Source of the DNA: an uncultured Enterobacteriaceae bacterium | GTDB taxonomy: Bacteria > Myxococcota_A > UBA796 > SXON01 | Length of the DNA: 64,000 nt | Assembly (NCBI GenBank): GCA_964457335.1 | Contig: CAYWGD010000017.1 | Span: forward strand, 11,069-75,068 | Direction of reading: 5' to 3' | Part shown: positions 2,769-30,193 of the stretch, piece by piece | Layout of the letters: every line of letters starts with the position of its first letter | Position numbering within the stretch: the stretch's first letter is position 1 | Notes under the pieces: generated by a model | Told to the model about the DNA's origin: nothing | Databases searched by the model: none | Seen by the model: the letters and a program-made list of their open reading frames with translations, nothing else | Program-made: the position numbers and the translations under genes

Positions 2769-2809
2769 CAAATTCCCGACAAGCGCGCATGGACTAAGCT
2801 GGACGCTGA

Positions 2810-6767: not shown

Positions 6768-7222
6768 TAGTGGACCGCCGCGTTCGGCGCCGTGCCGACC
6801 GTCTTCAGGGCCCAGGTGGAGCCGAGGTCGATCGTGACGCCCCACTCCACCGAGAAGCCGAGGTTCTCGAGCCCGAAGAGGAAGAACTCCGCGCCCACGG
6901 CCGGCTGGATGCGCACCACGCCCTCCGTGCCGGTGACGCCGTAGCCACCGCCGGCGCCCAGGTAGAGGTTCATGTTGTCCTCGGCCACCACCGAGTACAG
7001 GAGCCGACCGCCGGCGAAGAACTGGGCCGGGTTGCCCGACGAGAGGTCGAGACCGAGGTCGGCCTCGAGCTGCACGTTGTTGGTCGGCTTCGCGCCCGGG
7101 AAGCCGTAGCGGGCCGAGAGCGCGGTCACGCTGCCGAACTGCTGGTGGAACCCGACGCCGAAGCGCGACCGCAGGTCCTTGGCGTCGGCGGTGGAGATCG
7201 AGAGCAGCAGCGCGAGCAGCAT
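6758..7222 (-). CDS. Small outer-membrane beta-barrel protein (OmpA-like/porin family 8-strand type)
   Basis: Signal peptide MLLALLLSISTADA, alternating beta-strand pattern, and a C-terminal aromatic ...AAVHYYF. Confidence 0.7.
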   Translation of the reverse strand: MLLALLLSISTADAKDLRSRFGVGFHQQFGSVTALSARYGFPGAKPTNNVQLEADLGLDLSSGNPAQFFAGGRLLYSVVAEDNMNLYLGAGGGYGVTGTEGVVRIQPAVGAEFFLFGLENLGFSVEWGVTIDLGSTWALKTVGTAPNAAVHYYF

Positions 7223-7255
7223 GGGGGACCGCTCTAATCCCCCGGTCCCCGCGGG

Positions 7256-8110
7256 TCAAAGCCGGCGGAGCACCAGCGCGGGCGCGAGCGTGGAGACGCC
7301 CGGCCCCTCGACGCGCACGACGGCGCGTCGGGCCTCGGTGATCGGGGGGCGGAAGCCGAACGCGCGCGCGACGAAACGTTCGGCGGCGAGCGTGTGCGCC
7401 CAGCCGTCCAACACGACGGCCTCCCCCGCGGAGCGGAACGTCAGCGTCCAGTCCCCGAGCGTGAGCGCGGTCGAGCGCTCGATGGGGAAGTCGGTCGCGG
7501 CGCCGGTCCACGTGTGATCGCCGGCGCGCACCCAGGCCGGGCAGTCGGAGAGCGGCTCGATGCCCGCGGCGAAGCCGGCGCCGAGCACGTAGAGCGCCGA
7601 CCCCTCCACGTGGCCCGCCGCGCGCGTCCGCACGATGACGCCGGGCCCGGTCAGGAGCCGCCCGTCGACGCGGTCCTCCACCACGCCCGTCATCTCGCCG
7701 ACCTCGGGCGGGCAGCCCGGCGCCGCCCCGCGCACGTGCACGCGCGCCCCGAGGCCGCCCCCGCCGACGCGCAGCTCCCAGCCGTCGGCGCTGGGCACGA
7801 GCGCGTCGGCCCCGGACGCCACGCCTTCGCTGGGAGGGGCGGGGCCCCACTGGGCCCGGTGCTCGATCACGCCCGGGCCGGCCGGCAGGAGCAGGAGCCA
7901 GGTCGTGAGCTGGCCGTCGAGGAGGCCGGTGTTCCCGACGGAGAGCCACGACCAGAGCACGGCGCCGTCGGCGTCCGCGCCCACCAGCGCCCAGGCGTCG
8001 CTCCGCGGCTCCACGCCGAGGCGGACGCCCGCGTAGGCGAGCGTCCCGGCCGCGAGCGCGGCGAGGAGGAGCCTGCGCGGCACGCGATCAGCCGGGGGCG
8101 CCGCGTGCAC
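7256..8110 (-). CDS. Exported hypothetical protein
   Basis: Arg-rich n-region plus hydrophobic stretch (RRLLLAALAAGTLAYAG). An alternative GTG start at 8083 lies 4 nt after the upstream stop. No domain recognised. Confidence 0.55.
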   Translation of the reverse strand: MHAAPPADRVPRRLLLAALAAGTLAYAGVRLGVEPRSDAWALVGADADGAVLWSWLSVGNTGLLDGQLTTWLLLLPAGPGVIEHRAQWGPAPPSEGVASGADALVPSADGWELRVGGGGLGARVHVRGAAPGCPPEVGEMTGVVEDRVDGRLLTGPGVIVRTRAAGHVEGSALYVLGAGFAAGIEPLSDCPAWVRAGDHTWTGAATDFPIERSTALTLGDWTLTFRSAGEAVVLDGWAHTLAAERFVARAFGFRPPITEARRAVVRVEGPGVSTLAPALVLRRL

Positions 8111-8909
8111 GGAACACCGGGTTCCACGGACGGTCGACCTTCCCCGGCGCGCAGCCCGCCGCGACGCCGGCCGCGAGCTCCGCGTCGAGCGCGGCGTCGG
8201 GCAGGTAGAGCTCGCCGACGAGCTCGCGGGCGTCGTCGAGCGTGCCGCGGCAGATGCGGTCGCGCGTGTCGGCGCTCGTCGTGGGGCGGATGAGCATCTC
8301 CACGACGCTCCGGCGCACGTAGGTCCGCGTGCCCGCCTCGCAGCGCCGGCGGTCCGTCTCGCCGGGGAGGCCGGCGCAGGCCGCGAGCACGGCCGGCTTG
8401 TTGCGGGCGTGCGCGAAGTACCACCAGTCGGCCCAGAGCAGCTCCTCGGCCCCGGGCCCGATCGTCTCGACGGCCGACCAGAACGCGACGATCGGCCGCG
8501 CGCGCTCGATCCCGTTGACCGCGCCGCCGTCGAGGCTCTCGGCGGCGAGCTGCAGCTCGAAGGTCCACGCGTGGTACAGGCACTCGTGGTAGTAGGCGCC
8601 CGCCGCGCCGCAGCCGGTCAGCGCCCCCCAGCGATCGCCGGCCTTCGCGCGGGCCTCCGCGATGCCGAACGCGCACTCGGAGCGCCAGCGCTCGGACGAG
8701 AGCCCGGCGCAGTGCTCGATCGGCACGTCCGCGTTCCCGCGGACCACGGTGGCGACGCACTCGTCGGTCTGCTCGCCGGCGAGCGCGCACAGGTCCAGGG
8801 CCTCGTCCACGGGGAGGTCCCCCGCGAGCGCGGCGCGGAAGGCCTCGGCGGGCGTGGGGCCACAGCCGGCGAGCGGCGCCACCAGCGCGAGGATCAACGC
8901 GCGGGGCAC
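8088..8909 (-). CDS. Cys-rich lipoprotein (paralogue B)
   Basis: Internal GTG start of ORF 8088..9461, placed by aa count. Lipobox LAGC. There are 10+ Cys in C-x-n-EC-type spacing. The upstream part of the listed ORF is Arg/Pro junk. Confidence 0.65.
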   Translation of the reverse strand: MPRALILALVAPLAGCGPTPAEAFRAALAGDLPVDEALDLCALAGEQTDECVATVVRGNADVPIEHCAGLSSERWRSECAFGIAEARAKAGDRWGALTGCGAAGAYYHECLYHAWTFELQLAAESLDGGAVNGIERARPIVAFWSAVETIGPGAEELLWADWWYFAHARNKPAVLAACAGLPGETDRRRCEAGTRTYVRRSVVEMLIRPTTSADTRDRICRGTLDDARELVGELYLPDAALDAELAAGVAAGCAPGKVDRPWNPVFRARGAPG

Positions 8910-9550
8910 AGGTCGGTCCGCGCGGCGCGCATCGCGTCGAGCTCGGGGTCGGGGGTGTGGGCGAGCAGCGGGGGGAGGGGGCCGCCGTCGCAGGGGTAGG
9001 CGCCGCGGTCGCGGGCCATGTTGAGGAGGTCCTGGTACATCGCGAGGCCGGTGCGCTCGCAGGCCTCGCGGCGCGCGGCGTCGGGCACCGACGCGCAGGC
9101 GGCGCGGTCGATCGGGCGGGTGGCGCCGAGCACGTGCCGGTAGAACGCGGACCACGGGCGCATGTCGTCCGCGGCGAGCCCGGAGGCGGCGATGCGCCGC
9201 GCCGCCTCGTCTTCCTGTTCGCCCGGGCGCGCGCCGCGCGGAATCCACTCCGGGAAGCCGCGCGAGAGCATGTGGAGCGCGCAGTCGGCGGCGAACGGCG
9301 CCGCCTTTGGGCAGAGCGAGGCGTCGTCGGTCTGCTCGGCGAGCTGGAACCAGCACTCGCCGCGGCTCGTCGCGTCCCGGACGGCCGCGCAGTCCGCGGG
9401 CTCGCGCGCCGTTGCCTCGCGGCACTCGTCGGCGAGCGCCGCGTCGCGGATGCCGTCGCACTCGCCGGACGCGAGCGCCTCCACGAAGCGGGCGCGGTCG
9501 GCGGCGCGGTCGGAGCCGGGGGTGGCGCAGGCGAGCAGGAGGAGGATCAC
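8894..9550 (-). CDS. Cys-rich lipoprotein (paralogue A)
   Basis: Internal GTG start of ORF 8894..10867 that forms a GTGA overlap with the upstream stop at 9547. Lipobox LLAC. Repeated EC/DC motifs resemble those of the neighbouring gene. Confidence 0.65.
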   Translation of the reverse strand: MILLLLACATPGSDRAADRARFVEALASGECDGIRDAALADECREATAREPADCAAVRDATSRGECWFQLAEQTDDASLCPKAAPFAADCALHMLSRGFPEWIPRGARPGEQEDEAARRIAASGLAADDMRPWSAFYRHVLGATRPIDRAACASVPDAARREACERTGLAMYQDLLNMARDRGAYPCDGGPLPPLLAHTPDPELDAMRAARTDLCPAR

Positions 9551-10965
9551 GGGTCGATCGTGTAGTCCGTTACGAACGTCCCGTCCGCGACGTGCCACAC
9601 CTCGATGGGCGCGGTCGTCTCCTCCGTGTCGGGGTCGTAGTCGAGCCGGCCGGACGCGCCGGTCACGTCGATCCCGCGGCCCTCGTCGAAGGTCGCGCGC
9701 ACCTGCGTCCAGTTGATCGGGTTGATGTCGATGGCGTCGCCGTCCGACACCCGGCGGAGGCCGCGGGCCACGCCGAGGCCCGAGATCGCGCCCTCGTTCG
9801 CGACCGACCAGGCCACGCCGTAGATCGCGAGCCACGCGGCGTCCCAGGTGTGGGCCGTGTACACCGAGTCCGACGCGCCGGCCGGGGCGTACTCGGCCGC
9901 GTAGGCGCCCGCGAAGAAGCCGTACACCGGCTGGTCCGTGCGCACCGACGGCGCGGTGCCCCGCACCTGGTCGAACAGGTCCGCGGCGGAGGCGGCGGCG
10001 TCGAGCACCTCCTGGTCCCGCGCGGTGTCGGTGAGGAAGATGCCGACGTCGGCGAGCTCGGCGTACTCGTGCGCCGTGTTGAGGAAGGCGACGATGTCCG
10101 CGGGCTCCGAGGAGATGAAGAGGATCTCCGTGGGCGGCGTCTCGCGCACGGCGGCGACGGCGAGGTCCCGCTCGGTGTCGTCGGAGAAGGGGAGGAGGGT
10201 GATCTGGCCGCCGCCCGTGCGGTAGGCCGTGTCGAAGACGCTCGCGAGGCCGCCCCCGTAGGAGCCCGTCCGGTAGATCACCGACACGTCGTAGACCTCG
10301 CGGTCGAGGATGTCGCCCGCGACCACCTCGCCCTGGAGCGAGTCGGGGGGCGCGGTGCGCCAGAAGAGGCCGGGCGACTCGTCGGTCTTCGTGAGGCCGT
10401 CGATCGAGGAGAGCGCGGGGCTCGTGGCGGACGGCGAGAGGACCACGGTCCCCGCGGGTGAGGCGGCGTAGTACGCGGCCTCGGCCGTGCCGGAGGTGGC
10501 GGGCCCGATGATCGCGGGCACTCCGAGCGTGTCCGCGAGGAAGCTCGCGCCGCGCGCGGCGGCGTCCTCGAGCGAGAGGTCGTCGTAGGCGTAGTCGACC
10601 GCGTAGTCGCACTCGACGAGCACGTACGGGCGGCCGTCGAGGCCGGACACGTCGTCCACCTGCATGAACGCGAGGCGCGCCGCCTGCGTCTCCGGCGTGT
10701 CGGAGCCGTGGTCGAACAGGGAGCCGAGCACGACGGCGTCGCGGTAGTTCTCGGGGCGCGAGAAGAGGTCCTCGGGCCAGGTGGTCTCGCAGCGCGGCTC
10801 GACCTCGACCTCGGCGCAGAGGCCTTCGTCGCCGCAGGTCCAGCCGAAGCCGAAGGCATCGCGGCACTCGGCGTGCGTCTCGCAGGGGGTGTAGTCCGAG
10901 GTCCCGAGCGAGCAGCCGGCCAACAGCGCTGCCAGGGCGGCGGGGACGAGGAGACGCGGCGTCAC
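9547..10965 (-). CDS. Lipoprotein, type-I periplasmic substrate-binding protein (Leu/Ile/Val-binding, Peripla_BP_6-like). No cognate ABC permease or ATPase is adjacent.
   Basis: Internal GTG start (GTGA overlap with the stop at 10962). Lipobox LAGC, then a Cys-rich N-terminal knot, then a LivJ-like body (VLGSLF...GVPAIIGPATSG...VYDVSVIYRTGSYGGG). Confidence 0.8.
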   Translation of the reverse strand: MTPRLLVPAALAALLAGCSLGTSDYTPCETHAECRDAFGFGWTCGDEGLCAEVEVEPRCETTWPEDLFSRPENYRDAVVLGSLFDHGSDTPETQAARLAFMQVDDVSGLDGRPYVLVECDYAVDYAYDDLSLEDAAARGASFLADTLGVPAIIGPATSGTAEAAYYAASPAGTVVLSPSATSPALSSIDGLTKTDESPGLFWRTAPPDSLQGEVVAGDILDREVYDVSVIYRTGSYGGGLASVFDTAYRTGGGQITLLPFSDDTERDLAVAAVRETPPTEILFISSEPADIVAFLNTAHEYAELADVGIFLTDTARDQEVLDAAASAADLFDQVRGTAPSVRTDQPVYGFFAGAYAAEYAPAGASDSVYTAHTWDAAWLAIYGVAWSVANEGAISGLGVARGLRRVSDGDAIDINPINWTQVRATFDEGRGIDVTGASGRLDYDPDTEETTAPIEVWHVADGTFVTDYTIDP

Positions 10966-20454: not shown

Positions 20455-22560
20455 ATGCCGTCGTGTCTCCCGGTCCCGCGCCCCGGCCTCCCCGCGGGCT
20501 TCGCCGGGGCTCCTGCCGCCGCGCCCGGCCGGGTCGGCGTCTCGATCGTGCTGCTCCTCGCGCCCGCCCTGGCCGCCGCCGCGCCGCCCGCCGATCCCGC
20601 CCCGGCCCCGGACTCCGCCGCCGAACCCGCCGCCGAACCCGCCGCGGGCGTTCCCGCGCCCGACGCCACCCCGCTCCCCTCGCGGGCGCGCCTCGCCGGC
20701 CCCGATCTCGCCGCCGTCCCGGGCGCCGGCGAGGACCCCACGCGCGCGCTCCAGGCCCTGCCCGGCGTCACCTCCGACCGCGACGGCCTCGGCGGCTTCT
20801 CCGTCCGCGGCGGCGCGCCGGGCGACGTGCTCGTGCTGCTCGACGGCGTCCCCGTCGCCACGCCCTCCCCGCTCTCCCCGCTCCCCGGCCTCCTCGACCC
20901 CCAGCTCGTCGACAGCCTCACCCTCGACGCCGGCGTCTCCCCCGCCGACGCGCCCACCAACACGGCGGGCGTCGTCGCCCTCCGCTCGTGGAGCACCGCC
21001 ACCACGCTCGACGCGCGCCCCGACGACCTCGACGGCGCGGTCGACCTCACGACCGCCGGCGCCCGCCTCGTCCTGGCCGGCCCGGTCGGCCGCTCGGACG
21101 CCCTCGACTTCGCCGTCGGGGCTCGCCGCAGCTACCTCGGCGTGCACGGCTGGGCGCTCGGCGGGGTCGGCCTCCTCGACACCCCGCGCGCCTTCCCGGA
21201 GCACGAGCAGCTCTCCGCGCGCCTCGCCTGGACGCCCGGCGCGCACGCGCTCCGGCTCACCGTCCTCCACACCGGCGCCCACCTCGCCGCCGCCGCGGAC
21301 GACGATCGCCTCCTCCCCGTCACCGGCGCCTTCACGCTCGACGACGCCTACACCGTCGCCACCCTCGATCACGCCGGGCCCGTGGGCCGCGCGGACATGC
21401 GGAGCGCGGTCTCCGCGAGCTACGCCACCTCCCGCCTCGACCGCGGCGACCCCACCAACGCGACGCTCGCCCAGCTCTACACCCGCTCGGACCTCGTCAT
21501 CCCGGCCTGGGACCACCACACGATGACGCTCGGCGCCTCCGCCCAGCTCCGCGAGCACGGGGTGGACGGGCCCGTCGACGACACCCGCGCCGTCCCCACC
21601 TGGGCCTCCGTCCCGCTCGGCGACCTCGGCCTCTCCACCGTCCCGCTCACCTCCGCCGGCTGGGAGCCCCTGGCCGCCGTGTACGCCGAGCACGCCTGGG
21701 AGGGACCCGTCCACACGCGGCTCGGCGTGCGCGCCACCTGGGTCGGCCGCACCGGCGAGGTGCTCCCCGGCCCCTCCGCCGGCATCGCGATGCCCCTCCC
21801 CACGGGCACCGTCCCCCGCATCGCCGGCGGCCTCTACCACCGCGTCGTCGAGGACCCGCTCGCCGTCGACCCGGTGCACGGCAATCCGGCCCTCGGCGCC
21901 GAGCGCGCCTGGCAGCTCGTCATCGGCGTGGACCAGGCGCTCCCGATCGGCGACGGCGCGCTGGTCCGCGTGGAGGGCCACGTCGCCCGCCACGACGACC
22001 TCGTCGTGCGCTCCGACAGCCCCGACGCCGCCGCGACCTTCACCAACGACGGGACCGGCCGCGACCTCGGCGTCGACGTGGCCTTCCGCGCTCGTGTCGC
22101 CCGCGTCGAGGTGGACGCCACCCTCTCGCTCCTCCGCTCCGAGCGCACGAACCCGCTGAACGAGGCCTTCCCCGACGACGTGGTGCCCGGCCACGCGCGC
22201 GAGGCGGCCTTCGGCTTCGCGGTCGCCTACGAGCCGTCCCCGCGGTGGCGCTTCGTGGGCCGCTACGAGCTCCAGTCGGGCCGGCCCACCTCCTCGATGG
22301 AGGCGGGAGGCGCGGACTTCGCGAGGATCGCGGCCCTGAACGACCAGCGCATGGGGGACCGGCACCAGCTCGATGTGCGCGCCGAGTGGCGGCACGCGGC
22401 CGCGCGGGTGCGCTATGCGGTGTACGTGGACGTGCTGAACGTGCCGAACCTGCGGAGCCCGCTGTTGCCCACCGTCACCGTGTCCGAGGGCCTCCTCGCC
22501 GAAGGCCGCGTGGACCAGCTCCCGATCCGGCCGTTGCTGGGCGCGCGGGCCGAATTCTGA
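20455..22560 (+). CDS. TonB-dependent-receptor-like outer-membrane barrel (plug plus barrel)
   Basis: Signal peptide and a Pro/Ala-rich extension. Plug motif DPTRALQALPGVTSDRDGLGGFSVRGGAPGDVLVLLDGVPV. Long beta-rich body ending in a terminal ...GARAEF. Confidence 0.75.
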   Translation: MPSCLPVPRPGLPAGFAGAPAAAPGRVGVSIVLLLAPALAAAAPPADPAPAPDSAAEPAAEPAAGVPAPDATPLPSRARLAGPDLAAVPGAGEDPTRALQALPGVTSDRDGLGGFSVRGGAPGDVLVLLDGVPVATPSPLSPLPGLLDPQLVDSLTLDAGVSPADAPTNTAGVVALRSWSTATTLDARPDDLDGAVDLTTAGARLVLAGPVGRSDALDFAVGARRSYLGVHGWALGGVGLLDTPRAFPEHEQLSARLAWTPGAHALRLTVLHTGAHLAAAADDDRLLPVTGAFTLDDAYTVATLDHAGPVGRADMRSAVSASYATSRLDRGDPTNATLAQLYTRSDLVIPAWDHHTMTLGASAQLREHGVDGPVDDTRAVPTWASVPLGDLGLSTVPLTSAGWEPLAAVYAEHAWEGPVHTRLGVRATWVGRTGEVLPGPSAGIAMPLPTGTVPRIAGGLYHRVVEDPLAVDPVHGNPALGAERAWQLVIGVDQALPIGDGALVRVEGHVARHDDLVVRSDSPDAAATFTNDGTGRDLGVDVAFRARVARVEVDATLSLLRSERTNPLNEAFPDDVVPGHAREAAFGFAVAYEPSPRWRFVGRYELQSGRPTSSMEAGGADFARIAALNDQRMGDRHQLDVRAEWRHAAARVRYAVYVDVLNVPNLRSPLLPTVTVSEGLLAEGRVDQLPIRPLLGARAEF

Positions 22561-23402
22561 TGCGCCGTCCGCTCCGCGTCTCGCCGACGTTGTCGCGCCC
22601 CGTGTGGGGCGGCACCACGCTCGCCGCCGAGATGGGCAAGGACCCCGATCCCGCCGCCCGCATCGGCGAGAGCTGGGAGGTCTGGCGCGAGAACGTCGCC
22701 CCCGACGGGCGCCCGCAGTCCGCGCTCGTCGACTTCCCCGTCCTCATCAAGCTCCTCGACGTGCGCGAGACGCTCTCCGTGCAGGTGCACCCCGACGACG
22801 CCACCGCCCGCCTCGTCGCCGGCGCGCCCCACGGCAAGCACGAGGGCTGGGTGGTCCTGCGCGCGGAGCCGGGCGCGCGCGTCGCGTACGGGCTCCGCCG
22901 CGAGATGTCGCGCGCCGAGCTGCGGGAGCGCGCGCTCTCCGGCGCCATCGAGGACGACCTCGCGTGGCTCCCCGTGAAGGCCGGCGACGTGATCGACGTC
23001 CCGCCCGGCACCATCCACGCCATCGGCGGCGGCGTGTTGTTCTACGAGGTCCAGCAGCCCTGCGACCTCACCTGGCGGCTGTACGACTGGGGCCGCGGCC
23101 GGCCGCTCCACCTCGAGCAGGCGCTGGAGGTCGTGCGGCCCGGCCCGTGCGTCTCCACCGCGGCGGTCCGCGCGCTCGCCCCGGGGCGCGAGGAGCTGCT
23201 CGACGGCCGGCACTTCCACGTGGAGCGCCTCCGCCTGCCGCAGCCGCGCGTCACCGAGGCCTGGGAAGCCCTCACCGTCGTCGAAGGCGAGCTCCGCGTC
23301 GACGACGAGCGCGTCGGGCTCGGCGGCACCGTGCTCCTCCCGCCGGGCACGTGGCGCCTCGAAGGGGAGGGGACCGTGCTCGCCGCGAGGGGCGGCGCGT
23401 AG
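22560..23402 (+). CDS. manA: Class I mannose-6-phosphate isomerase (cupin)
   Basis: Internal ATG of ORF 20463..23402 (TGATG 1-nt overlap with the receptor stop). VWGG, ESWE, LSVQVHPDD, EGWVVL and GTIHAIGGGVLFYEVQQ motifs. Confidence 0.8.
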   Translation: MRRPLRVSPTLSRPVWGGTTLAAEMGKDPDPAARIGESWEVWRENVAPDGRPQSALVDFPVLIKLLDVRETLSVQVHPDDATARLVAGAPHGKHEGWVVLRAEPGARVAYGLRREMSRAELRERALSGAIEDDLAWLPVKAGDVIDVPPGTIHAIGGGVLFYEVQQPCDLTWRLYDWGRGRPLHLEQALEVVRPGPCVSTAAVRALAPGREELLDGRHFHVERLRLPQPRVTEAWEALTVVEGELRVDDERVGLGGTVLLPPGTWRLEGEGTVLAARGGA

Positions 23403-23494
23403 CGCGGGCACGGCACGATCCGGCGGACTCCCCCGAAAAGCCCGGCGGCATCGACGCGACCTCCACCTTGCGGTCCGGGCCCCCGGCGAGTAGC

Positions 23495-25192
23495 ATGGTG
23501 CCGCCCTCTGGAGGCACCGTGCCCCTCTCCGGTCTCGCGCTCCTCGCCCTGCCCGCCTACGCCGAGGACTGGGCCCACGGCGAGACCATCGAGAAGGCGG
23601 CCTACGCCGACCTCACGCCCGAGGGGCTCAACGCCATCTCGGCGCTCATCCCCGCGCTCCTCCCGTCGGGCATCGAGGTGCCCGACACGAGCGACTCGGG
23701 CGGCACCTGGTGCTTCAACTACGCCTACGGGCTCTCCGGCGCGTGGGTCACGATCCAGGTCGTGGACGCGACGATCACGCCCGGCAACGGCGTGCTCGAC
23801 ATCACCGCGAGCCTCATGGTCTCGCTGAACGACCCGTCCGACCCCTTCCAGCTCTCCTACGAGCTCGCCTGCATCGACGACAGCTGCGACGGCTACGTCG
23901 ACGCCTTCCCGGTCACCGTCACGACCTCGATGGCGCTCGAGGTCGTCGACGTGGGCGGCGGCACGCGCCAGCTCGACGCCACGATCGGCGCCATCAACGT
24001 CTCCTACGACCTCCAGAACGAGGACATCCACCTCGACGGCTGCTCGGTCGGCAGCATCGAGGAGGTGCTCAACTGGTTCGGGCTCTCGCTCTACGACCTC
24101 ATCCTGGGGCAGCTGGACAGCTACCTGCAGGACGCGATCGCGGACATGGGCCCCACGCTCGAGGAGACGATCGAGGAGGCGTTCGCCAGCGCGAGCATCA
24201 ACCAGGAGCTCGATCTCAACGGCGCCGTCGCGCAGCTCTCCCTCCAGCCGAGCGACGTGCTCGTCACGCCCGAGGGTGTGCGCGTGCAGATGTCGGGCTC
24301 GATGGCGGCGGAGGCCTCGGCGTGTGTCGCGGCGTACGACCCCGGCGGCTCGCCCAAGACGCCCACCGAGGCGCCCGCGCTCGGCGCCACCCCGAGCGGC
24401 GTCGGCAGCGACTACCACGTCGCGCTCACGCTCTCCGACGACTTCACGAACCAGGCGCTCTACGCGCTCTGGCGCGGCGGGCTCCTCTGCTACGCGCTCG
24501 AGCCGGGCGGCGACTTCCCGCTCGACACCTCGATCCTCAACGCGCTCACCGGCGATGCGTTCATCGAGCTCTTCCCCGAGTCGAAGCCCATCACGCTCCA
24601 GACGGCGCCCAAGAACCCGCCCACCACGAAGTTCGACGGCGCCCACGCCATCGACGTGAACCTCGACGCGCTCGGGCTCGAGTTCTTCGCCGAGCTCGAC
24701 GGGCGCGAGGCCAAGATGGTGGCGGTCGATCTCACGGGCACCGTCGGTTTGGACCTCGGCTTCGACGGCACCACCGGCGAGCTCGGCGTCGTCGTCGACC
24801 TCGACCCCGCCGCCCTCACCCCGAGCGTGGCCTACAACGAGTTCTACCCCTCCGCGAACGACGCCATCCTGTCCAGCTTCTCCGAGACCTTCGGGAGCCT
24901 CGTGGGCAGCGTGGTCGGCGGCCTCCTCGAGAACCTCGCCTTCGCGCTCCCGGCCTTCAACGGCATCGGCCTGAACGAGCTGCAGACCTCCGCGGTCGGC
25001 GACGACGCCGACTGGCTCGGCGCCTACGCCTGGGTCGGCCCCGTCACCTACGAGGCCGCCGACGGCTGCGGCAGCGACGGCGGCTGCTCCAGCGACGGCT
25101 GCAGCGGCGGTTGCGCCTCCACCCCGTTCGGCCCGGCCGTCTGGGCCGCCTTCGCGGGCCTGGTCCTCCTCCGTCGGCGCTCCGACTCGTAG
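23495..25192 (+). CDS. Secreted BPI/LBP/CETP-like (TULIP superfamily) lipid-binding protein with a MYXO-CTERM-type sorting tail
   Basis: Start at M298 of ORF 22604..25192 (alternative GTG at 23519). Signal peptide [13 protein letters not shown]. Colinear resemblance to human BPI as I recall it: [80 protein letters not shown]. Tail: [32 protein letters not shown]. Confidence 0.7.
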   Translation: [565 protein letters not shown]

Positions 25193-25201
25193 CGCGGGGT
25201 C

Positions 25202-25246
25202 TTCTTCTTGGGGCGGGGGGGCTTACCGCCCCCCCGCAACGCCCCC
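25202..25246 (-). repeat. G/C-run repeat family, copy R1 (reverse orientation)
   Basis: The reverse complement reads GGGGGCGTTGCGGGGGGGCggtaagCCCCCCCGCCCCAAGAAGAA. It lies between convergent genes, downstream of the minus-strand lipoprotein gene. Confidence 0.6.
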
Positions 25247-25316
25247 GCTCTCGCGTGGTGGTGTGCCCCGGCGCGAGGTGCCGCCGGGCGAGGCGCGCCG
25301 TCGGGCCCTGGGGCGC

Positions 25317-25883
25317 CTACCGGAACCGCATCGCGCCCACCACCACGTCCAGGTCCGCCTTCCCGGCCCGGAGCCGCCCCTGCGGCACACGGCCCTCCAC
25401 GTGGAACAGGACGCCCTCCTGCGCGACGACGTACGCGATGATCCGCGGGGCGTCGGGCTCGTCGGGGGTGCAGGTGGCGGCCAGCACGGCGTCGCGCACC
25501 TTCACGGCGCGGTAGCGGCCCACGTCCTGGAAGGTCCAGGCGCAGCCCGGGAGGGGGCGTGGCGCGAGCGTGTCGCCGGGCGTGGCCGCGATGGTCACGC
25601 GCACGTCGCCGTCGGGGTCCGCGAGCACCACGCGCTCCACGGACCCGTCCTCGCCGATCTCGGCGGTCCAGCCGGGCGGCACGGGCACGATCAGCGGCCA
25701 GGTGCCGTCCACGTAGGTGTCGCCCTGGAGCCGGCCGGTCGGCACCGGCGCGACGGCCGGCGCCTGCACGAGCGGCGGCGGCGGCACGCTCGGCTTGCGG
25801 CAGCCCGGGAGCGCGAGCGCGGCGAGGCCGACGAGCGCGACCGTGACGTACGCGCCGGGGCCGGGGCACCCGCCGGAGCTCAC
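25317..25883 (-). CDS. Lipoprotein, function unknown
   Basis: Internal GTG of ORF 25317..26567 (GTGA overlap with the crotonase stop). Lipobox LPGC. Confidence 0.6.
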   Translation of the reverse strand: MSSGGCPGPGAYVTVALVGLAALALPGCRKPSVPPPPLVQAPAVAPVPTGRLQGDTYVDGTWPLIVPVPPGWTAEIGEDGSVERVVLADPDGDVRVTIAATPGDTLAPRPLPGCAWTFQDVGRYRAVKVRDAVLAATCTPDEPDAPRIIAYVVAQEGVLFHVEGRVPQGRLRAGKADLDVVVGAMRFR

Positions 25884-26656
25884 CGCTTCGGCTCGAGCGC
25901 GCGCCGGTGGTCCGGGCCGCCCCAGAGCTCCGCGAACACGGCCAGCTCCTCGTCGCGGCCGCGGGGCGGCGCGGCGGCCCGCACGATGCGCTTCGCGCCG
26001 CGCACCGCCGCCGCGGGCAGCGCGCACACGTCCACGGCGAGCTCCTGGGCGCGGACGCGCGGGGAGGCGTGCACCTCGTCCACGAGCCCGACCGCGCGCG
26101 CCTCGTCGGCGCCGAGCGTGCGGCCCAGGGCCAGGATCTTGAGGGCCTCGCGGGGCCCGACGCGCTCCACGAGGCGCCCGCCCCCGCCGAAGCCCGGCGA
26201 CACGCCGAGCCGCGCGTGCACGAACCCGATGCGCGCGGTCGGGGCCGCCACGACGAGGTCCGCGGCGACCACGAGCTCCGCGCCGCCTCCGAGCGCCGCG
26301 CCCTCCACCGCCGCGATCACGATGGCGTCGAGCTCGGCGAGGCGGTCGACCGCGGCCTGCATGAACCGGCCGAACGCCGCGCCCGCGCCGGGGACCGCGA
26401 GGTGCGACCGCACGGCCCCGAGGTTGCCGCCGGAGCAGAAGGTGCAGTGCTCGCCCGTGAGGACCACCACGCGCGCGTCCCGCACGCGGTCGGCGGCCTC
26501 CGCGAGGGTGAGCATCATGCGCGGGTCGAGCGCGTTGCGGCTCCCCGCGTGGTCGAAGCGGACCCACGCGACGCCGCTCGCGTCGGGCGGATCGACGTGC
26601 ACGCGGCCCTCCCCCTCGGGGAGGCTCGCGGCCCAGGCGCCGAAGTCGGTCATCAT
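25880..26656 (-). CDS. Enoyl-CoA hydratase/isomerase (crotonase) family protein
   Basis: Internal ATG of ORF 25880..27310 (ATGA overlap with the meaB stop). FCSGGNLG, AAVEGAALGGGAEL and GVSPGFGGGGRL motifs. Confidence 0.85.
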   Translation of the reverse strand: MMTDFGAWAASLPEGEGRVHVDPPDASGVAWVRFDHAGSRNALDPRMMLTLAEAADRVRDARVVVLTGEHCTFCSGGNLGAVRSHLAVPGAGAAFGRFMQAAVDRLAELDAIVIAAVEGAALGGGAELVVAADLVVAAPTARIGFVHARLGVSPGFGGGGRLVERVGPREALKILALGRTLGADEARAVGLVDEVHASPRVRAQELAVDVCALPAAAVRGAKRIVRAAAPPRGRDEELAVFAELWGGPDHRRALEPKR

Positions 26657-27594
26657 CGGGCCGCCGCGCGCTCGGGGCGGACGCGCCCCGCGCGGAGGTC
26701 GTCGAGCAGCTCGCTGCCGTCGAGGGCGCGGCGCGCGCGGTCCCGCGCGGCGTCGGCCACGAGGTCCAGGTAGGTGCGCACGCGCCCCTCGGCGCGGCGG
26801 GCCACCCAGGCCGCGCGGCCCTCGCCCACGCACCAGTCGCGGTGGGCCTGGAGCGACGCGAGCGTCGCGTCGACGCCGCGGTCCTCGAGCGCGACCGAGG
26901 TGTGCACCGGGGCCTGCCAGCCGGGGCGGTCGTCCAGGTGCACGGCCTGCTCGAGGTCCCGGCGCAGGTGGTCCGCGCCGGGCCGGTCGGCCTTGTTCAC
27001 GCAGAACACGTCCGCGATCTCGAGCAGCCCCGCCTTCATGGTCTGCACGGCGTCGCCGCTCTCGGGCGTGAGCACCACGAGCACGGTGTCGGCGACCTCC
27101 ATCACGGCGAGCTCGCCCTGGCCGACGCCGACCGTCTCCACGAGGATCCGGTCGAAGCCCACCGCGTCGAGCACGTCGACCACCTGCCCGGCCGCGCGCG
27201 AGAGCCCGCCGAGGTGCCCGCGCGACGCGAGCGAGCGCACGTACACGAAGGGGTCCTCCGCGTGCCGCTCCATCCGGATGCGGTCCCCGAGGATGGCGCC
27301 GCCCGACCACGGCGACGAAGGGTCCACGGCGACCACCGCGACGCGCTCGCCGGCAGCCCGGGCGTGCTGGACGAGCCGGTCCACGAAGGTGCTCTTCCCG
27401 GCGCCGGGCGGGCCCGTGATGCCGATGACGTGGGGGGCGCCGGGGGCGGTCATCCGCCGCGGCGCGAGCGTGTCCAGCGCCTCGGCCACGCCGGGGGCGC
27501 GGCCCTCCACCATGGACACGAGCCGGGCGAGGGCGGGGCGTTCGGCCGCGCGCGCACGGGCGAGCAGCTCTGAGAGGGGTTGCGACGAGGCCAC
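26653..27594 (-). CDS. meaB: MeaB/ArgK-type G3E GTPase (methylmalonyl-CoA mutase chaperone family)
   Basis: GITGPPGAGKST, VAVVAVDPSSPWSGGAILGDRIRM, ETVGVGQ and NKAD motifs. Confidence 0.9.
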   Translation of the reverse strand: MASSQPLSELLARARAAERPALARLVSMVEGRAPGVAEALDTLAPRRMTAPGAPHVIGITGPPGAGKSTFVDRLVQHARAAGERVAVVAVDPSSPWSGGAILGDRIRMERHAEDPFVYVRSLASRGHLGGLSRAAGQVVDVLDAVGFDRILVETVGVGQGELAVMEVADTVLVVLTPESGDAVQTMKAGLLEIADVFCVNKADRPGADHLRRDLEQAVHLDDRPGWQAPVHTSVALEDRGVDATLASLQAHRDWCVGEGRAAWVARRAEGRVRTYLDLVADAARDRARRALDGSELLDDLRAGRVRPERAAAR

Positions 27595-27716: not shown

Positions 27717-28208
27717 ATGCGCGCGTTTCACGGGATGGTGGCCCTCTTCGCCCTCGCCGGCTGCGGCGGCGCGAGCGCCGACGTGGCGGGGAGCGCGGGC
27801 GGAGTGGACTTCGGCAAGACCACCAACGTCTACTTCGGCGGGCCCTTCGTCATCATCTCGATGCTCGAGGTCGACTGCGAGGACCTCGACTGGCCGCGCC
27901 GCAACTACGAAGAAGGGCAGGCGCCCACGGAGCTGGACACGGAGCTCCTCCAGTTCGCCTACACGCAGACGGACGACGTGGTGGAGGGCCCGGCCCCCGT
28001 TGCGATCGACGGCGCCGCCTCGGCGACCGTGGTCCGCGTCGCCGGCGGTGCCCTCTACGAGAGCATCGCGACGGGCGGCATCCTCACGATCGACTCGGTC
28101 GAGTCCGAGGACGCCGCGAGCGGCACGTTCGAGGGCATCCTGTTCGAGGACGGCACCCTGGACGGCAGCTTCGACGCGGTCTGGTGCCGCAACCTCAAGG
28201 CCAGGTAG
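27717..28208 (+). CDS. Lipoprotein, function unknown
   Basis: M35 of ORF 27615..28208, with a GAAGGAGG Shine-Dalgarno sequence just upstream. Lipobox LAGC. Confidence 0.6.
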   Translation: MRAFHGMVALFALAGCGGASADVAGSAGGVDFGKTTNVYFGGPFVIISMLEVDCEDLDWPRRNYEEGQAPTELDTELLQFAYTQTDDVVEGPAPVAIDGAASATVVRVAGGALYESIATGGILTIDSVESEDAASGTFEGILFEDGTLDGSFDAVWCRNLKAR

Positions 28209-28212
28209 CGTC

Positions 28213-29676
28213 ATGCTCGGCCTCGTCGCCCTGTTCGCCCCCGCGCAGGCGGCGGACGTGCTGTTCGTCGAGGCCACGCCCGCCACGCTGGACGACTTCT
28301 CCGTGGCCGGCCTCTTCTACGGCATGGTCGTGTCGGCGGCGGAGGAGCAGGGGCTCGACTACCAGGACGCCGACGCGATCCGCCGGTGGGCCGGCACCGA
28401 CGCGGACACCTGCTGGGACGACGACGCCTGCCCGTCCAACCTCTGGGATCGCACGGACGCGCGCCTCGCCGTCGTGATGAGCGTCGGGACCACGGCGAGC
28501 GGGCTCGTCGTGCAGGCCCGCCTCCACGGCGTCGACGAGACGGCGCCCTTCAAGGTGCTCAAGGAGACGGTGCCGCCGGGCGGCGAGCTCGAGGTCGCCG
28601 AGCGGATCGCGCGCGCGGCCGCGGACGCCCTGCCGCTGCTCCCCGTCCGCAAGCCCGTCTCGGGGCCGGTGCTCGTGATCGAGGACGAGGTCGTGCCGCC
28701 CCCGGAGGACCTCCCGGATCCCGACGAGCGGGAGTTGCCGGACGAGCCCGACACCCCCGCGGGCCGCCCCGACGCCGGCGCGGGCCGCGCGAAGGTGGAC
28801 GACCGGCGCCCGCCCGACCGCGACGCGGTGCCCGACCGGCCCGCGGGCCGGGCCGACCCGCGCCGCGACCGCGACGGCGAGGACTCGCTCCGGGAGCACC
28901 TCCGCACCGAGGAGGACCGCCGCCGCATGGGCGTCCCCGCGCCGGCGTACGCGCGCTACGAGGCGAGCGGGCTCTCGCGCGAGGAGTGGCTGGCGAAGGC
29001 GCGCGTGCGCGCCGGGCGCGCGTTCCTCGAGCTCGGCGGCGGCTGGGGCATCGGCGACGTCGACCGCGGCTACGGCGTGCGGCTCCGCATCGAGGAGTCC
29101 GGCGACACCTTCGAGACCGTGGGCACCTCCTCCTGGGAGGGCGCCGGGGCCGGCGCCGCGCCCACCTTCGGCTTCACGCTCGGCTACGCGCCCGCGTGGT
29201 ACCTCGACACCTCCGTGGCGGTCGCGGTCCAGTACGGGACCAAGTACCTCGACACGGGCTGGGAGTGCCCCGCCCAGTGCGACCCGGCCGCGAGCGAGTA
29301 CGTGCACGACCCCGTGGGCGCCGTGCAGGCCTTCGTCGAGCCGCGCGTGCGCTTCTACCCGGTCGCCACGGGCGTCGTGAAGCCCTACGCGCTCGTCGCG
29401 TTCAGCGTGCTCCTGCACGACGGCTTCGAGGTGCCCGACCCCGACTTCGTGGACTACCCGGACGCGCCCGCCGGCGCGTCGTTCGGCCCCACGGGCGGCC
29501 TCGGGCTCGCCATCGACCCCGTCGCCCGCGTCACGATCTTCGGGGAGGTCCCCGCCACGCTCCTGCTCGCGCAGCCGGTGACGCGGGCCGACGGCGAGGT
29601 CTCGCTCGACCCCGGTCGGCTCGAGGGTGGCGGCTACGTGGTCCGCTTCGTGGGCGGGATCGCCGTCCGGCTCTGA
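28213..29676 (+). CDS. Secreted protein: N-terminal alpha/beta domain, Pro/Asp/Arg-rich linker, C-terminal beta-rich (barrel-like) domain
   Basis: M72 of ORF 28000..29676. Signal peptide MLGLVALFAPAQA. The linker is PPPEDLPDPDERELPDEPDTPAGRPD.... The C-terminus shows alternating hydrophobic strands. Confidence 0.55.
   Translation: MLGLVALFAPAQAADVLFVEATPATLDDFSVAGLFYGMVVSAAEEQGLDYQDADAIRRWAGTDADTCWDDDACPSNLWDRTDARLAVVMSVGTTASGLVVQARLHGVDETAPFKVLKETVPPGGELEVAERIARAAADALPLLPVRKPVSGPVLVIEDEVVPPPEDLPDPDERELPDEPDTPAGRPDAGAGRAKVDDRRPPDRDAVPDRPAGRADPRRDRDGEDSLREHLRTEEDRRRMGVPAPAYARYEASGLSREEWLAKARVRAGRAFLELGGGWGIGDVDRGYGVRLRIEESGDTFETVGTSSWEGAGAGAAPTFGFTLGYAPAWYLDTSVAVAVQYGTKYLDTGWECPAQCDPAASEYVHDPVGAVQAFVEPRVRFYPVATGVVKPYALVAFSVLLHDGFEVPDPDFVDYPDAPAGASFGPTGGLGLAIDPVARVTIFGEVPATLLLAQPVTRADGEVSLDPGRLEGGGYVVRFVGGIAVRL

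Positions 29677-29719: not shown

Positions 29720-30189
<470 letters not shown>

Positions 30190-30193
<4 letters not shown>

Follow-up and report, generated by a model that had tools for sequence, protein, structure and literature searches.

Positions 23495–25192 (+) of the 64-kb stretch of DNA analyzed here, which we call the window, are a real gene, and its product, judged from an AlphaFold2 model, has a two-barrel lipid-binding fold as in the bactericidal/permeability-increasing protein of humans (BPI). The protein is strongly acidic, ends in a MYXO-CTERM-type sorting tail, and belongs to a large, well-conserved family of sequences that were all called "hypothetical" among the members seen, and for which neither Pfam nor NCBIfam has a model. 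Its C-terminal barrel is remotely homologous to that of BPI, and the gene keeps conserved housekeeping neighbors across related genomes.

Results

Gene structure and export signal

The open reading frame begins with an ATG at 23495 and runs for 565 codons to a stop at 25190–25192 (Table 1). The gene caller's product (P0001, 557 aa) starts instead at the GTG at 23519, and in the family alignment the first residues of the nearest homologues are the corresponding M-P-L; on this sequence evidence, the GTG, with a product of 557 aa, is the more likely start. Third-position GC content (GC3) of the gene is 0.98, the same as in the neighboring genes. A consensus scan for terminators near the stop codon found two overlapping sites against 0.3 expected, which is weak evidence.

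Inspection of the family alignment bears out the signal peptide claimed in the initial annotation, since the A-x-A end is conserved across the family: the N-termini consist of a short hydrophobic stretch up to A-x-A, followed by a conserved [ED/T]W-P-x-G. With the start at 23519, the signal peptide is only about 15 residues long. Only 4 of 260 family members have an N-terminal lipobox-like motif. That the putative signal peptide, if the GTG is the start, is unusually short and has no basic n-region counts against the export proposed below.

Table 1. Features of the double-TULIP gene and of the two lipoprotein genes in its vicinity.
Feature	Positions	Strand	Basis
Whole ORF, BPI-like double-TULIP protein (565 codons plus stop)	23495..25192	+	ORF and translation
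GGAGG Shine-Dalgarno-like motif (23510-23514), then alternative start GTG (23519)	23510..23521	+	sequence; gene caller; homologues
Signal peptide, A-x-A end (PAYA, then EDW)	23495..23563	+	inspection of family alignment
N-terminal TULIP barrel, residues 24-280	23564..24334	+	AF2 secondary structure; Foldseek
Pro/Gly-rich inter-barrel linker, residues 281-305	24335..24409	+	hhalign; AF2 model
C-terminal TULIP barrel, residues 306-520	24410..25054	+	hhalign; PF02886 sub-threshold; pLDDT
MYXO-CTERM-type sorting tail	25055..25189	+	TIGR03382; family pattern
Weak terminator-like hairpin over stop codon, then TTCTTCTT	25184..25201	+	consensus scan; weak evidence
Small lipoprotein, 176 aa, lipobox LPGC, family unassigned (context only)	25320..25847	-	convergent with TULIP gene
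Another small lipoprotein of 163 aa with lipobox LAGC and two more invariant Cys, family unassigned (context only)	27717..28205	+	synteny

Predicted fold

The AlphaFold2 model (pLDDT 86, pTM 0.82) was compared with the PDB by Foldseek, a check that the initial annotation had proposed for its claim of a two-barrel TULIP protein like BPI, LBP and CETP, and the outcome agreed with that claim. The best match was human BPI (1BP1; E 9.4e-24, 505 columns), with TM-scores of 0.64 (on the query) and 0.77 (on the BPI structure); LBP (4M4D) and CETP (2OBD) ranked next, and the top matches 1BP1, 1EWF, 4M4D and 2OBD had E-values of 9e-24 to 7e-17 over 505–543 aligned columns. All structural matches with E up to 0.05 were TULIP proteins, and OrfX/P47 and the single-domain TULIPs scored far below BPI, LBP and CETP. 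In the model, both halves contain the long helix and curved sheet of the TULIP fold. The N-terminal barrel consists of a strand, helix A (42-55), a long twisted sheet, helix B (199-231) and strands of the central sheet, with pLDDT values mostly of 84–97 that fall to 71–77 at residues 181–210; the C-terminal barrel has pLDDT above 90 across most of its length, and bears the family signature Y-A-x-W-R-G-G-L-L-C. The linker is unstructured in the model, and hhalign pairs it with BPI residues ~238–250, which form the proline-rich linker of BPI. The two-barrel "boomerang" with central sheet and proline-rich linker is thus found in the Foldseek matches, in the model and in the linker alignment.

BPI has a single disulfide, Cys135-Cys175, that ties the hairpin of the N-terminal barrel to the helix B region, whereas the family described here has at least two nearly invariant Cys pairs. 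Cys131, which lies in a hairpin C-x-x-x-x-C and pairs with BPI Cys135 in weak local alignments, is present in 127 of 134 members of the family alignment, and Cys183 in 133. Cys332 of the C-terminal barrel is invariant, as is Cys277 in the part preceding it, its presumed disulfide partner. Conservation of these pairs across the family is consistent with an oxidizing compartment, and we counted it in favor of export.

Sequence relationship to BPI

The initial annotation had aligned five stretches of the protein with strings from BPI. All five strings are present in the BPI sequence that we used (identical to PDB 1BP1 at 456 of 456 positions, bar one engineered residue), and they are colinear, at protein/BPI positions 40/9, 60/32, 76/51, 260/218 and 306/251. 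For four of the five, no other site in BPI gives a better ungapped BLOSUM62 match, and three score better than shuffled BPI: the 11-residue pair and the 30-residue pair (12 of 30 identical) were each equalled by none of 500 shuffles, and one 10-residue pair had P = 0.018. The other 10-residue pair was at chance level against shuffled BPI (P = 0.48), and the pair of 32 and 31 residues scored negatively when ungapped. Pairwise BLASTP aligned 245 colinear residues of the two proteins with E = 0.004, and identity to BPI is 16–23%.

Profile-profile comparison by hhalign reached significance only when a query of 134 family members was compared with an alignment of 105 tetrapod BPIs: the full-length comparison gave E 1.4e-6 (residues 256–500 against BPI 214–442), and the C-terminal domain alone gave E 3e-7 at a probability of 93% over 224 columns. 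The N-terminal domain against that of BPI was not significant (E 0.067), nor were the cross-domain comparisons, nor that of family alignment A1 with a single BPI sequence (E 0.095). The colinearity with both barrels that the initial annotation had claimed holds in structure, over 505 columns; in profile comparison of sequences it is significant for the C-terminal barrel and not for the N-terminal one, and a relationship to BPI can be demonstrated from sequence for the former alone.

Used singly, the protein was searched against Pfam, NCBIfam and PDB sequences with no significant match, and a 68-member profile against PDB sequences gave none either. A search for PF01273 and PF02886, which had also been proposed, did not reach Pfam thresholds. 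PF01273 gave no match to the protein at E up to 10, and was not among the families listed when 148 members were scanned with E-values up to 1 allowed. PF02886 alone among Pfam families recurred in both member scans (4 of 68 and 7 of 80, best E 0.0015); it was sub-threshold in these 11 of 148 members and reached the 23-bit gathering score in none. As far as such profiles can tell, the similarity in the PF02886 region shows superfamily-level homology, not Pfam membership.

The sorting tail

The tail (residues 521-565) comprises a spacer rich in Cys, Gly, Ser and Asp (25055-25114), a hydrophobic helix (25115-25168) and RRR (25169-25177), followed by SDS; its pLDDT is low, as expected. A tripartite tail of Cys motif, transmembrane helix and Arg cluster thus lies at the extreme C-terminus of a protein that also has an N-terminal signal peptide. 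When scanned alone, the tail matched TIGR03382 (GC_trans_RRR) with 19.6 bits and E 0.001 (cut-off 15.85); the score for TIGR03901, a stricter MYXO-CTERM model, was 13.0, below the cut-off of 20. The NCBIfam scan of the whole protein returned no match, presumably because of speed filters. A strict tail pattern was present in 224 of 251 full-length members, and by eye 23 of 25 listed exceptions also have the tail, the remaining two being a truncated and a frameshifted-looking sequence. Cys525, Cys536 and Cys540 of the tail are nearly invariant, Cys540 occurring in 133 of 134 members. The MYXO-CTERM assignment of the initial annotation is accordingly upheld by TIGR03382 and by the near-universal presence of the tail in the family, at a score that falls short for TIGR03901. 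Motif scans of the 64-kb window found neither other MYXO-CTERM tails nor a CPBP/myxosortase-like ORF, and the sorting machinery is therefore assumed.

Family distribution and gene neighborhood

The family comprises 1498 clusters at 50% identity; a word-indexed search recovered at least 182 homologues, and members were found in 77 species-level genomes. All members seen come from uncultured Myxococcota-type metagenome-assembled genomes (MAGs; Myxococcota, Deltaproteobacteria or similar), and divergence within this lineage extends down to 26% identity. A homology search that started from the most divergent member (locus L076) returned nine matches, all "hypothetical" proteins of MAGs, and none of them led to Bdellovibrio or to any family with an annotation.

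Examination of the gene neighborhoods revealed conserved synteny with the housekeeping genes PMI, ECH, MeaB and PurE. Native codon usage, presence in 77 species-level genomes and this synteny indicate that the TULIP gene belongs to the core genome. Only 15 of the 77 loci have PMI upstream, the downstream gene is convergent, and no same-strand neighbor is conserved across the 77 loci. None of the neighboring genes points to a particular lipid or process. Two small lipoprotein genes recur in the vicinity. In 37 of 77 related loci, the TULIP gene is followed directly downstream, on the other strand, by a homologue of the one at 25320..25847, which has no Pfam match. The second, at 27717..28205, is found close to the TULIP gene at 36 of the 77, even where the intervening ECH and MeaB genes are missing; it has no Pfam match either, including in scans of 21 members, and its single-sequence AlphaFold2 model (pLDDT 32) was unusable.

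Discussion

The TULIP fold is established as a lipid binder, and BPI and CETP carry lipids in their lumen. We consider it probable that the protein is a Sec-exported, myxosortase-processed tube for binding or transferring lipids, anchored by a lipid at the cell surface; its processing, surface location, lipid binding and direction of transfer are inferred from the features described above. It would be an envelope protein of two barrels, each a long helix wrapped in a twisted beta-sheet, joined through the central sheet and the proline-rich linker. A short, cleavable signal peptide would direct it to the Sec pathway, and it would fold with disulfides, probably Cys131-Cys183 and Cys277-Cys332, with the C-terminal tail helix initially keeping it in the inner membrane. 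The steps that may follow are drawn by analogy with TraA of Myxococcus xanthus: the Cys adjoining the tail helix would be lipidated, the myxosortase (MrtX) would cut away the helix along with the Arg cluster, and the protein would travel to the cell surface through the type II secretion system. There it would hang from the outer membrane by its C-terminal lipid and a flexible Cys/Gly-rich stalk, and lipids or further hydrophobic molecules could enter the hydrophobic interior of the tube, to be passed between the outer membrane and a second membrane, a vesicle or a particle.

The analogy rests on a published pathway, in which a tail of Cys motif, transmembrane helix and Arg cluster leads to MrtX cleavage, type II secretion (T2SS) and surface anchoring, and in which the tail Cys of TraA is needed for MrtX cleavage and surface display (PMC11980579). 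TraA and the protein described here are alike in having an N-terminal signal peptide and a C-terminal tripartite tail; their passengers are unrelated, TraA being a kin-recognition receptor and ours a TULIP. The myxosortase paper mentions no TULIP passenger (0 occurrences of BPI, TULIP or lipid-binding; PMC11980579).

A less probable alternative, though the best of those that we weighed, is that the protein retains its helix, or is lipidated and left unsecreted, and acts in the periplasm as a carrier or bridge, tethered to the inner membrane and shuttling lipids between inner membrane and outer membrane, in the way suggested for other TULIPs of bacteria. The bacterial TULIPs DUF4403, YceB and DUF2993 have been placed in the intermembrane space (Levine 2019, PMC6791001), and the core-genome context would suit a housekeeping role in the envelope. 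The tail has a genuine transmembrane helix and Arg cluster, scores below threshold for TIGR03901, and is seen in a window where the sorting machinery is not. However, the tail does meet TIGR03382, and its nearly invariant Cys lies directly before the helix, a feature that TraA requires for MrtX cleavage and surface display.

It is improbable that the ligand is not a membrane lipid at all, in which case the protein would carry or sense a carotenoid, sterol or hopanoid, quinone or signal in the manner of Takeout/JHBP-type TULIPs, or would be an adhesin at the surface for which the fold is just a scaffold. The structural matches do include single-domain TULIPs with juvenile hormone or carotenoid as ligand, and nothing in the gene context specifies phospholipid. 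The two-barrel build, however, resembles BPI, LBP and CETP, which carry phospholipid, LPS and neutral lipid, much more closely than it does the single-domain carriers, and no biosynthetic genes for such ligands lie nearby.

Still less credit can be given to an antibacterial weapon that binds the LPS of prey and permeabilizes the prey outer membrane during predation, a role that the initial annotation had raised. Many Myxococcota are predators, BPI itself is the best structural match, and Bdellovibrio, a predator, has in TipA a protein that sticks to membranes and destabilizes them. However, the LPS-binding part of BPI (pI 9.4) is its cationic N-terminal domain (pI 9.7, net charge +14), whereas the protein described here has a pI of about 4 and a net charge of -63. 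Its N-terminal domain contains 1 Lys and 1 Arg against 23 Asp and 16 Glu (2 basic residues and 39 acidic), so that a cationic lipid A-binding domain of the BPI/LBP type is absent, and the whole family is similarly acidic, with a median pI of about 4. Such extreme acidity makes a BPI-style attack on LPS unlikely. The setting is not that of a weapon or toxin locus either, the gene being monocistronic amid housekeeping genes, and genes for toxins, immunity or secretion being absent from its vicinity. We rejected recent horizontal acquisition from a eukaryote, to which the vertebrate origin of the closest solved structures and the profile homology of the C-terminal barrel to tetrapod BPI might point, as very improbable given the low identity to BPI, the native GC3, the in-lineage divergence and conserved synteny across 77 species genomes, and the bacterial sorting signals at both ends of the protein.

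Relationship to known double-TULIP proteins

The view that the BPI-like branch of the superfamily is essentially eukaryotic, which the initial annotation had adopted, is out of date, since DUF4403 (2019), bacterial structures in the AlphaFold database (AFDB; 2023) and TipA of Bdellovibrio preceded our finding; what is described here is thus a useful new family, not a surprise. DUF4403 (PF14356) is a predicted full-length bacterial homologue of BPI, a pseudo-dimeric TULIP (Levine 2019, PMC6791001), and shares with the present family a bacterial two-TULIP architecture like that of BPI and predicted export to the envelope. PF14356 matched our protein with 10 bits and E 0.32 over one helix only (cut-off 28.3 bits), and matched 2 of 68 members with E 0.074 or worse, which is chance level. 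DUF4403 proteins are mostly N-terminal lipoproteins of ~460 aa, whereas the present family uses a C-terminal sorting tail. The best bacterial-eukaryotic link in that study had a probability of 63% over 167 residues (PMC6791001), compared with 90–93% over 213–224 residues for the link of our family to BPI, with methods and databases that differ.

Clustering of the AFDB grouped bacterial structures with human BPI, for example UniProt A0A2D5ZNG0 (TM 0.81), whose source the figure legend gives as 'Deltaproteobacteria bacterium' (Barrio-Hernandez et al. 2023, PMC10584675). That score is about as high as the 0.77 of our protein; the study gives no family definition, tail or context for A0A2D5ZNG0. 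One of our family members, MAA80516.1 (CL916_14775; locus L053), comes from a MAG of a Deltaproteobacteria bacterium and shares 38% identity with the protein in the window. From its isolate name, we take it to be from the same generation of ocean MAGs as A0A2D5ZNG0.

TipA (Bd2538) of Bdellovibrio bacteriovorus is a crystallized bacterial BPI-like double TULIP, which was annotated as DUF2785, is secreted into prey, forms a hairpin-locked homodimer, shares an operon with the gene of the beta-sandwich adapter TipB, carries lipid in its lumen, and has the effect on membranes noted above (bioRxiv 10.1101/2025.09.09.675085). By that description it stands apart from our protein, which has a membrane-anchor tail and no same-strand partner gene, and whose sole Pfam match is the weak one to DUF4403. 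No TipA-like chain was among the matches of the PDB sequence and fold searches. OrfX1/2/3 and P47 of the Clostridium botulinum toxin clusters are also bacterial TULIP folds (Foldseek E 1e-7 to 1e-9); they superpose poorly on the whole protein (TM 0.18–0.31), and their toxin-cluster context is absent here. Human BPI (1BP1/1EWF), LBP and CETP share two barrels, central sheet, proline-rich linker and signal peptide with our protein, which differs from BPI in being ~40 residues longer, strongly acidic rather than cationic, equipped with a C-terminal MYXO-CTERM anchor, and bacterial.

Detection of the whole C-terminal barrel by profile-profile comparison, colinearity of both barrels, a hairpin Cys that pairs with one of BPI in weak local alignments, and the shared proline-rich linker led us to consider that, among bacterial sequences, this family may be the nearest to BPI, LBP and CETP, the extracellular proteins of eukaryotes, a reading that we regard as doubtful; if true, it would imply an ancient link between Myxococcota and eukaryotes for double-TULIP lipid carriers. 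The same doubtful reading would make the protein the first TULIP shown on a bacterial surface by means of a C-terminal lipid anchor, possibly for contact-dependent lipid exchange or for extraction of lipids from other cells.

Bacterial double TULIPs have barely been characterized so far, TipA being the first with a structure. The family adds to them a large, conserved and unannotated group that would justify a new Pfam or NCBIfam model, with a high-confidence structural model and a sequence link to eukaryotic BPI that is clearer than the one published for DUF4403, and it could serve as a useful outgroup for the origin of eukaryotic BPI, LBP and CETP. Its C-terminal MYXO-CTERM anchor, undescribed for TULIPs, predicts display at the cell surface. 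The family is a candidate for surface lipid handling by uncultured, mostly aquatic Myxococcota.

Predicted fold and relationship to BPI

The product of the TULIP gene is predicted to be a BPI-like double TULIP, as judged from the Foldseek matches of its AlphaFold2 model and from the secondary structure of that model, in which the TULIP pattern of strand, helix A, long sheet and long helix B occurs twice. The model was built from a 68-sequence family alignment (A1) and had a mean pLDDT of 86 and a pTM of 0.82; apart from residues 1-3, segments of at least three residues with pLDDT below 50 occurred only in the C-terminal tail (529-552 and 554-565). The top matches in the PDB were human BPI (1BP1, E 9.4e-24, query/target TM 0.64/0.77, 505 columns, 16% identity; 1EWF, E 4.9e-23, TM 0.61/0.73, 515 columns, 16% identity), LBP (4M4D, E about 1e-19, TM 0.50/0.60, 518 columns, 14% identity) and CETP (2OBD, E 7e-17, TM 0.44/0.50, 543 columns, 13% identity), bearing out the BPI/LBP/CETP-like fold proposed in the initial annotation. 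Clostridial OrfX/P47, in contrast, lay far below these proteins (TM 0.18-0.31), followed by the single-domain TULIPs Der p 7, JHBP, Takeout and SPLUNC1, and all matches with E up to 0.05 were TULIP proteins.

Neither the protein nor the A1 profile had a significant match in Pfam, NCBIfam or the PDB sequences. When 148 members were scanned singly, PF02886 (LBP_BPI_CETP_C) was the sole family to recur in both scans (4/68 and 7/80 members, best E 0.0015), and all of these matches fell short of the 23-bit gathering score. As defined, the BPI Pfam families do not include this protein. We then used hhalign to compare two alignments, one of 134 family representatives at 50% identity (A2) and one of 105 tetrapod BPIs, with E-values that apply to single comparisons. 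At full length, residues 256-500 matched BPI 214-442 (E 1.4e-6, probability 90%), and the C-terminal halves alone gave E 3e-7 (probability 93%, 224 columns), supporting shared ancestry of the C-terminal barrel and linker with BPI. The N-terminal halves alone gave a non-significant E of 0.067, with the C-x-x-x-x-C hairpin as the only aligned part; for this barrel, it is structure and colinearity that point to kinship.

The initial annotation had paired five segments of the protein with strings of BPI. All of the strings are genuine, as checked in a human BPI sequence that agreed with PDB 1BP1 at 456/456 positions except one engineered residue. The five pairs are colinear. Four represent the best ungapped match anywhere in BPI, and three surpassed the top match in shuffled BPI (0/500, P = 0.018 and 0/500); one pair scored no higher than chance, and another aligns only with a gap. 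Taken with a BLASTP alignment to BPI (E = 0.004, 245 colinear residues, 20% identity), these results indicate that the alignment is real, yet by itself marginal evidence.

Conserved cysteines in the family alignment are compatible with disulfides in an exported protein. Cys131/Cys183 are nearly invariant, Cys277/Cys332 are invariant, and Cys73/Cys126 occur in about half to two-thirds of members. Cys131 lies opposite BPI Cys135, the hairpin half of the single BPI disulfide, in weak local alignments.

C-terminal tail

The MYXO-CTERM-type tail reported earlier was confirmed. Scanned alone, the tail (residues 521-565, [43 protein letters not shown]) scored 19.6 bits on TIGR03382 (GC_trans_RRR; cut-off 15.85), a model named "MYXO-CTERM sorting domain-containing protein", and 13.0 on TIGR03901, under the cut-off of 20. 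The tail architecture is family-wide: a strict pattern found it in 224 of 251 full-length members, it is visible by eye in 23 of 25 listed exceptions, and of the remaining two, one is truncated and the other looks frameshifted. Cys525, Cys536 and Cys540 are each kept in 128-133 of the 134 members of A2.

A Cys motif, a transmembrane helix and an Arg cluster together form the MYXO-CTERM signal; the Cys is the presumed site of lipidation, the helix is removed by the myxosortase MrtX, and the T2SS puts the protein onto the cell surface (Guo, Haft and Wall 2025, PMC11980579). A motif scan of the window found no second MYXO-CTERM-type tail and no CPBP-motif ORF, and the sorting machinery is therefore assumed.

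Three loci encode a divergent subfamily of 26-29% identity (L075, L076 and L077; targets ~2577-4550, 7623-9578 and 6780-8717), in which a spacer of ~100 residues, rich in Cys, Gly, Glu and Asp, separates the second barrel from the transmembrane helix, compared to ~20 residues in the window protein. This spacer looks like a stalk of variable length. A few members (those of loci L069, with LPAC, and L073, with LVAAC, and proteins P0184, P0255, P0390 and P0392) have an N-terminal lipobox-like motif besides the tail, which would mean a protein anchored at both ends.

Gene structure and neighborhood

The frame has 565 codons, ends in TAG, and bears the coding signature of real genes in the window, with a GC3 of 0.98 compared to 0.98 and 0.97 in the two genes upstream. 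Because the window is ~74% G+C, long spurious ORFs occur in every frame: the TULIP frame stays open for 890 bases 5' of the true start (22604-25192), and several overlapping Arg/Pro/Ala-rich ORFs of 500-600 codons (e.g. 23042-24646 on the minus strand and 23710-25515 on the plus strand) were rejected as compositional artefacts. The start is ambiguous. ATG 23495 is possible and has just a weak GGCGAG upstream; GTG 23519, chosen by the gene caller (P0001, 557 aa), is preceded by a perfect GGAGG at 23510-23514 and lies where the sequences of the closest homologues begin. With either start, inspection of the family alignment reveals a short hydrophobic peptide with an A-x-A end (PAYA|EDW), followed by a conserved W-P/A-x-G-x-x-I motif, and the N-terminus resembles a cleaved Sec signal. 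Signal peptides across the family are unusually short (~14-17 residues), and the basic n-region is mostly missing.

Genes surrounding the TULIP gene in the window
Gene	Position	Strand
TonB-dependent-receptor-like	20455-22560	+
Type I phosphomannose isomerase (PMI)	22563-23402	+
BPI-like TULIP	23495-25192	+
176-aa lipoprotein, family without assignment (no Pfam match)	25320-25847	-
Enoyl-CoA hydratase (ECH)	25883-26656	-
MeaB	26656-27594	-
163-aa lipoprotein, no Pfam match	27717-28205	+
488-aa protein, no Pfam match	28210-29673	+
PurE	29720-30190	+

The gene looks monocistronic, having its own spacer after the PMI stop codon (23400-23402), a tail-to-tail neighbor, and a weak terminator-like hairpin at its stop. 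Among 77 loci in related genomes, the convergent lipoprotein gene follows it in 37, and nearby are the second lipoprotein in 36, ECH in 36, MeaB in 19 and PMI in 15. Both lipoprotein genes adjoin the TULIP gene without ECH and MeaB between them at several loci (L024, L025, L036, L037 and L057). A clade of 50-59% identity (L007-L009, L011, L013 and L014) has none of these neighbors, which counts against a strict functional link. We read the conservation as lineage synteny, with a possible link to the two lipoproteins, which could be partners of the TULIP protein.

The TonB-dependent-receptor-like protein is divergent (Plug 29.6 bits, barrel under the Pfam cut-off), has an Ala/Pro-rich N-terminal extension, and lies upstream in the closest seven loci only. 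The 488-aa protein, kept downstream of the second lipoprotein in 13 loci, has an N-terminus resembling a signal, a central part rich in Pro, Asp and Arg, and a beta-rich-looking C-terminal half, and may be an outer-membrane protein.

Distribution

A word-indexed search returned at least 182 relatives; none of the 120 listed had a Pfam domain, and those with names were "hypothetical", save one JGI "TIGR03382 family" label. In an exhaustive profile search, clusters at 50% identity numbered 1498 up to an E of 1e-3, 640 up to 1e-10 and 268 up to 1e-30; the best 150 of the 1498 were inspected, and the low-complexity protein tail may lie behind part of the weak matches. With one genome per GTDB species, 77 loci contained a relative (26-77% identity), and even the most divergent members still have a signal peptide, two barrels and a tail. 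Nearly all of these loci are from MAGs, with believable titles of Myxococcota, Myxococcales or Deltaproteobacteria and many sample names suggestive of lakes or other aquatic settings; none of the hosts found was identified as a cultured organism. Several contigs that carry the family alongside other Myxococcota-type MAGs are titled Bifidobacterium breve, Klebsiella pneumoniae, uncultured Enterobacterales or Rickettsiales (e.g. L008, L015, L045, L019 and L060); these MAG records seem to be taxonomically mislabeled. One MAG (JAERSX01, isolate BH17) carries two paralogues, at L040 and L046, whose identities to the window protein are 46% and 41%; a scan by a single peptide motif found one copy in each of the other genomes.

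Proposed role

The protein is most likely an exported double-TULIP lipid carrier displayed at the cell surface; what the analysis shows is its predicted fold, a partial homology, the tail, the charge, the distribution and the gene context. By analogy with the Myxococcus xanthus MYXO-CTERM protein TraA, sorting would leave it hanging from the surface by a lipid at its C-terminus, on a flexible stalk rich in Cys and Gly. The analogy with BPI, CETP and TipA suggests lipid binding: hydrophobic molecules would enter the tube and be exchanged with the outer membrane. A transfer direction or partner would likewise be inferred. The main alternative is a periplasmic role for the same protein, with a tether to the inner membrane.

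Attack on prey envelopes, suggested in the initial annotation, is disfavored as an attack on LPS by the housekeeping gene context and by extreme negative charge. In the mature protein, 43 Asp and 30 Glu stand against 6 Lys and 4 Arg (net -63, pI about 4, also the family median), unlike in BPI, which has a pI of 9.4 and an LPS-binding N-domain of +14. Recent acquisition from a eukaryote is likewise disfavored: the codon usage is native, the family has diverged deeply within its lineage, synteny is conserved, and the sorting signals are bacterial.

Known bacterial TULIPs are already established, and the structures of P47/OrfX and YceB have been solved. DUF4403 was predicted in 2019 as a full-length bacterial BPI homologue (PMC6791001), and TipA of Bdellovibrio, with its adapter TipB, is a solved BPI-like double TULIP (Caulton et al., 2025 preprint, bioRxiv 10.1101/2025.09.09.675085). 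Human BPI also clusters with bacterial AlphaFold models, e.g. A0A2D5ZNG0 (TM 0.81), in a study whose figure legend lists "Deltaproteobacteria bacterium" (Barrio-Hernandez et al. 2023, PMC10584675). The family described here includes MAA80516.1, from a Deltaproteobacteria MAG. Judging from the isolate name, this is presumably an ocean MAG of the generation behind such UniProt accessions, and A0A2D5ZNG0 may therefore belong to the same family. Our literature search found no paper linking Myxococcota or MYXO-CTERM to the TULIP/BPI fold. A bolder reading, which we think unlikely, makes this family nearer to eukaryotic BPI/LBP/CETP than any other bacterial one, and its members the first case of a surface-displayed TULIP. 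What the analysis adds is an unannotated new family of a kind already known, modestly new in carrying a C-terminal surface-sorting tail on a TULIP and in a sequence link to the C-terminal domain of eukaryotic BPI that is clearer than usual.
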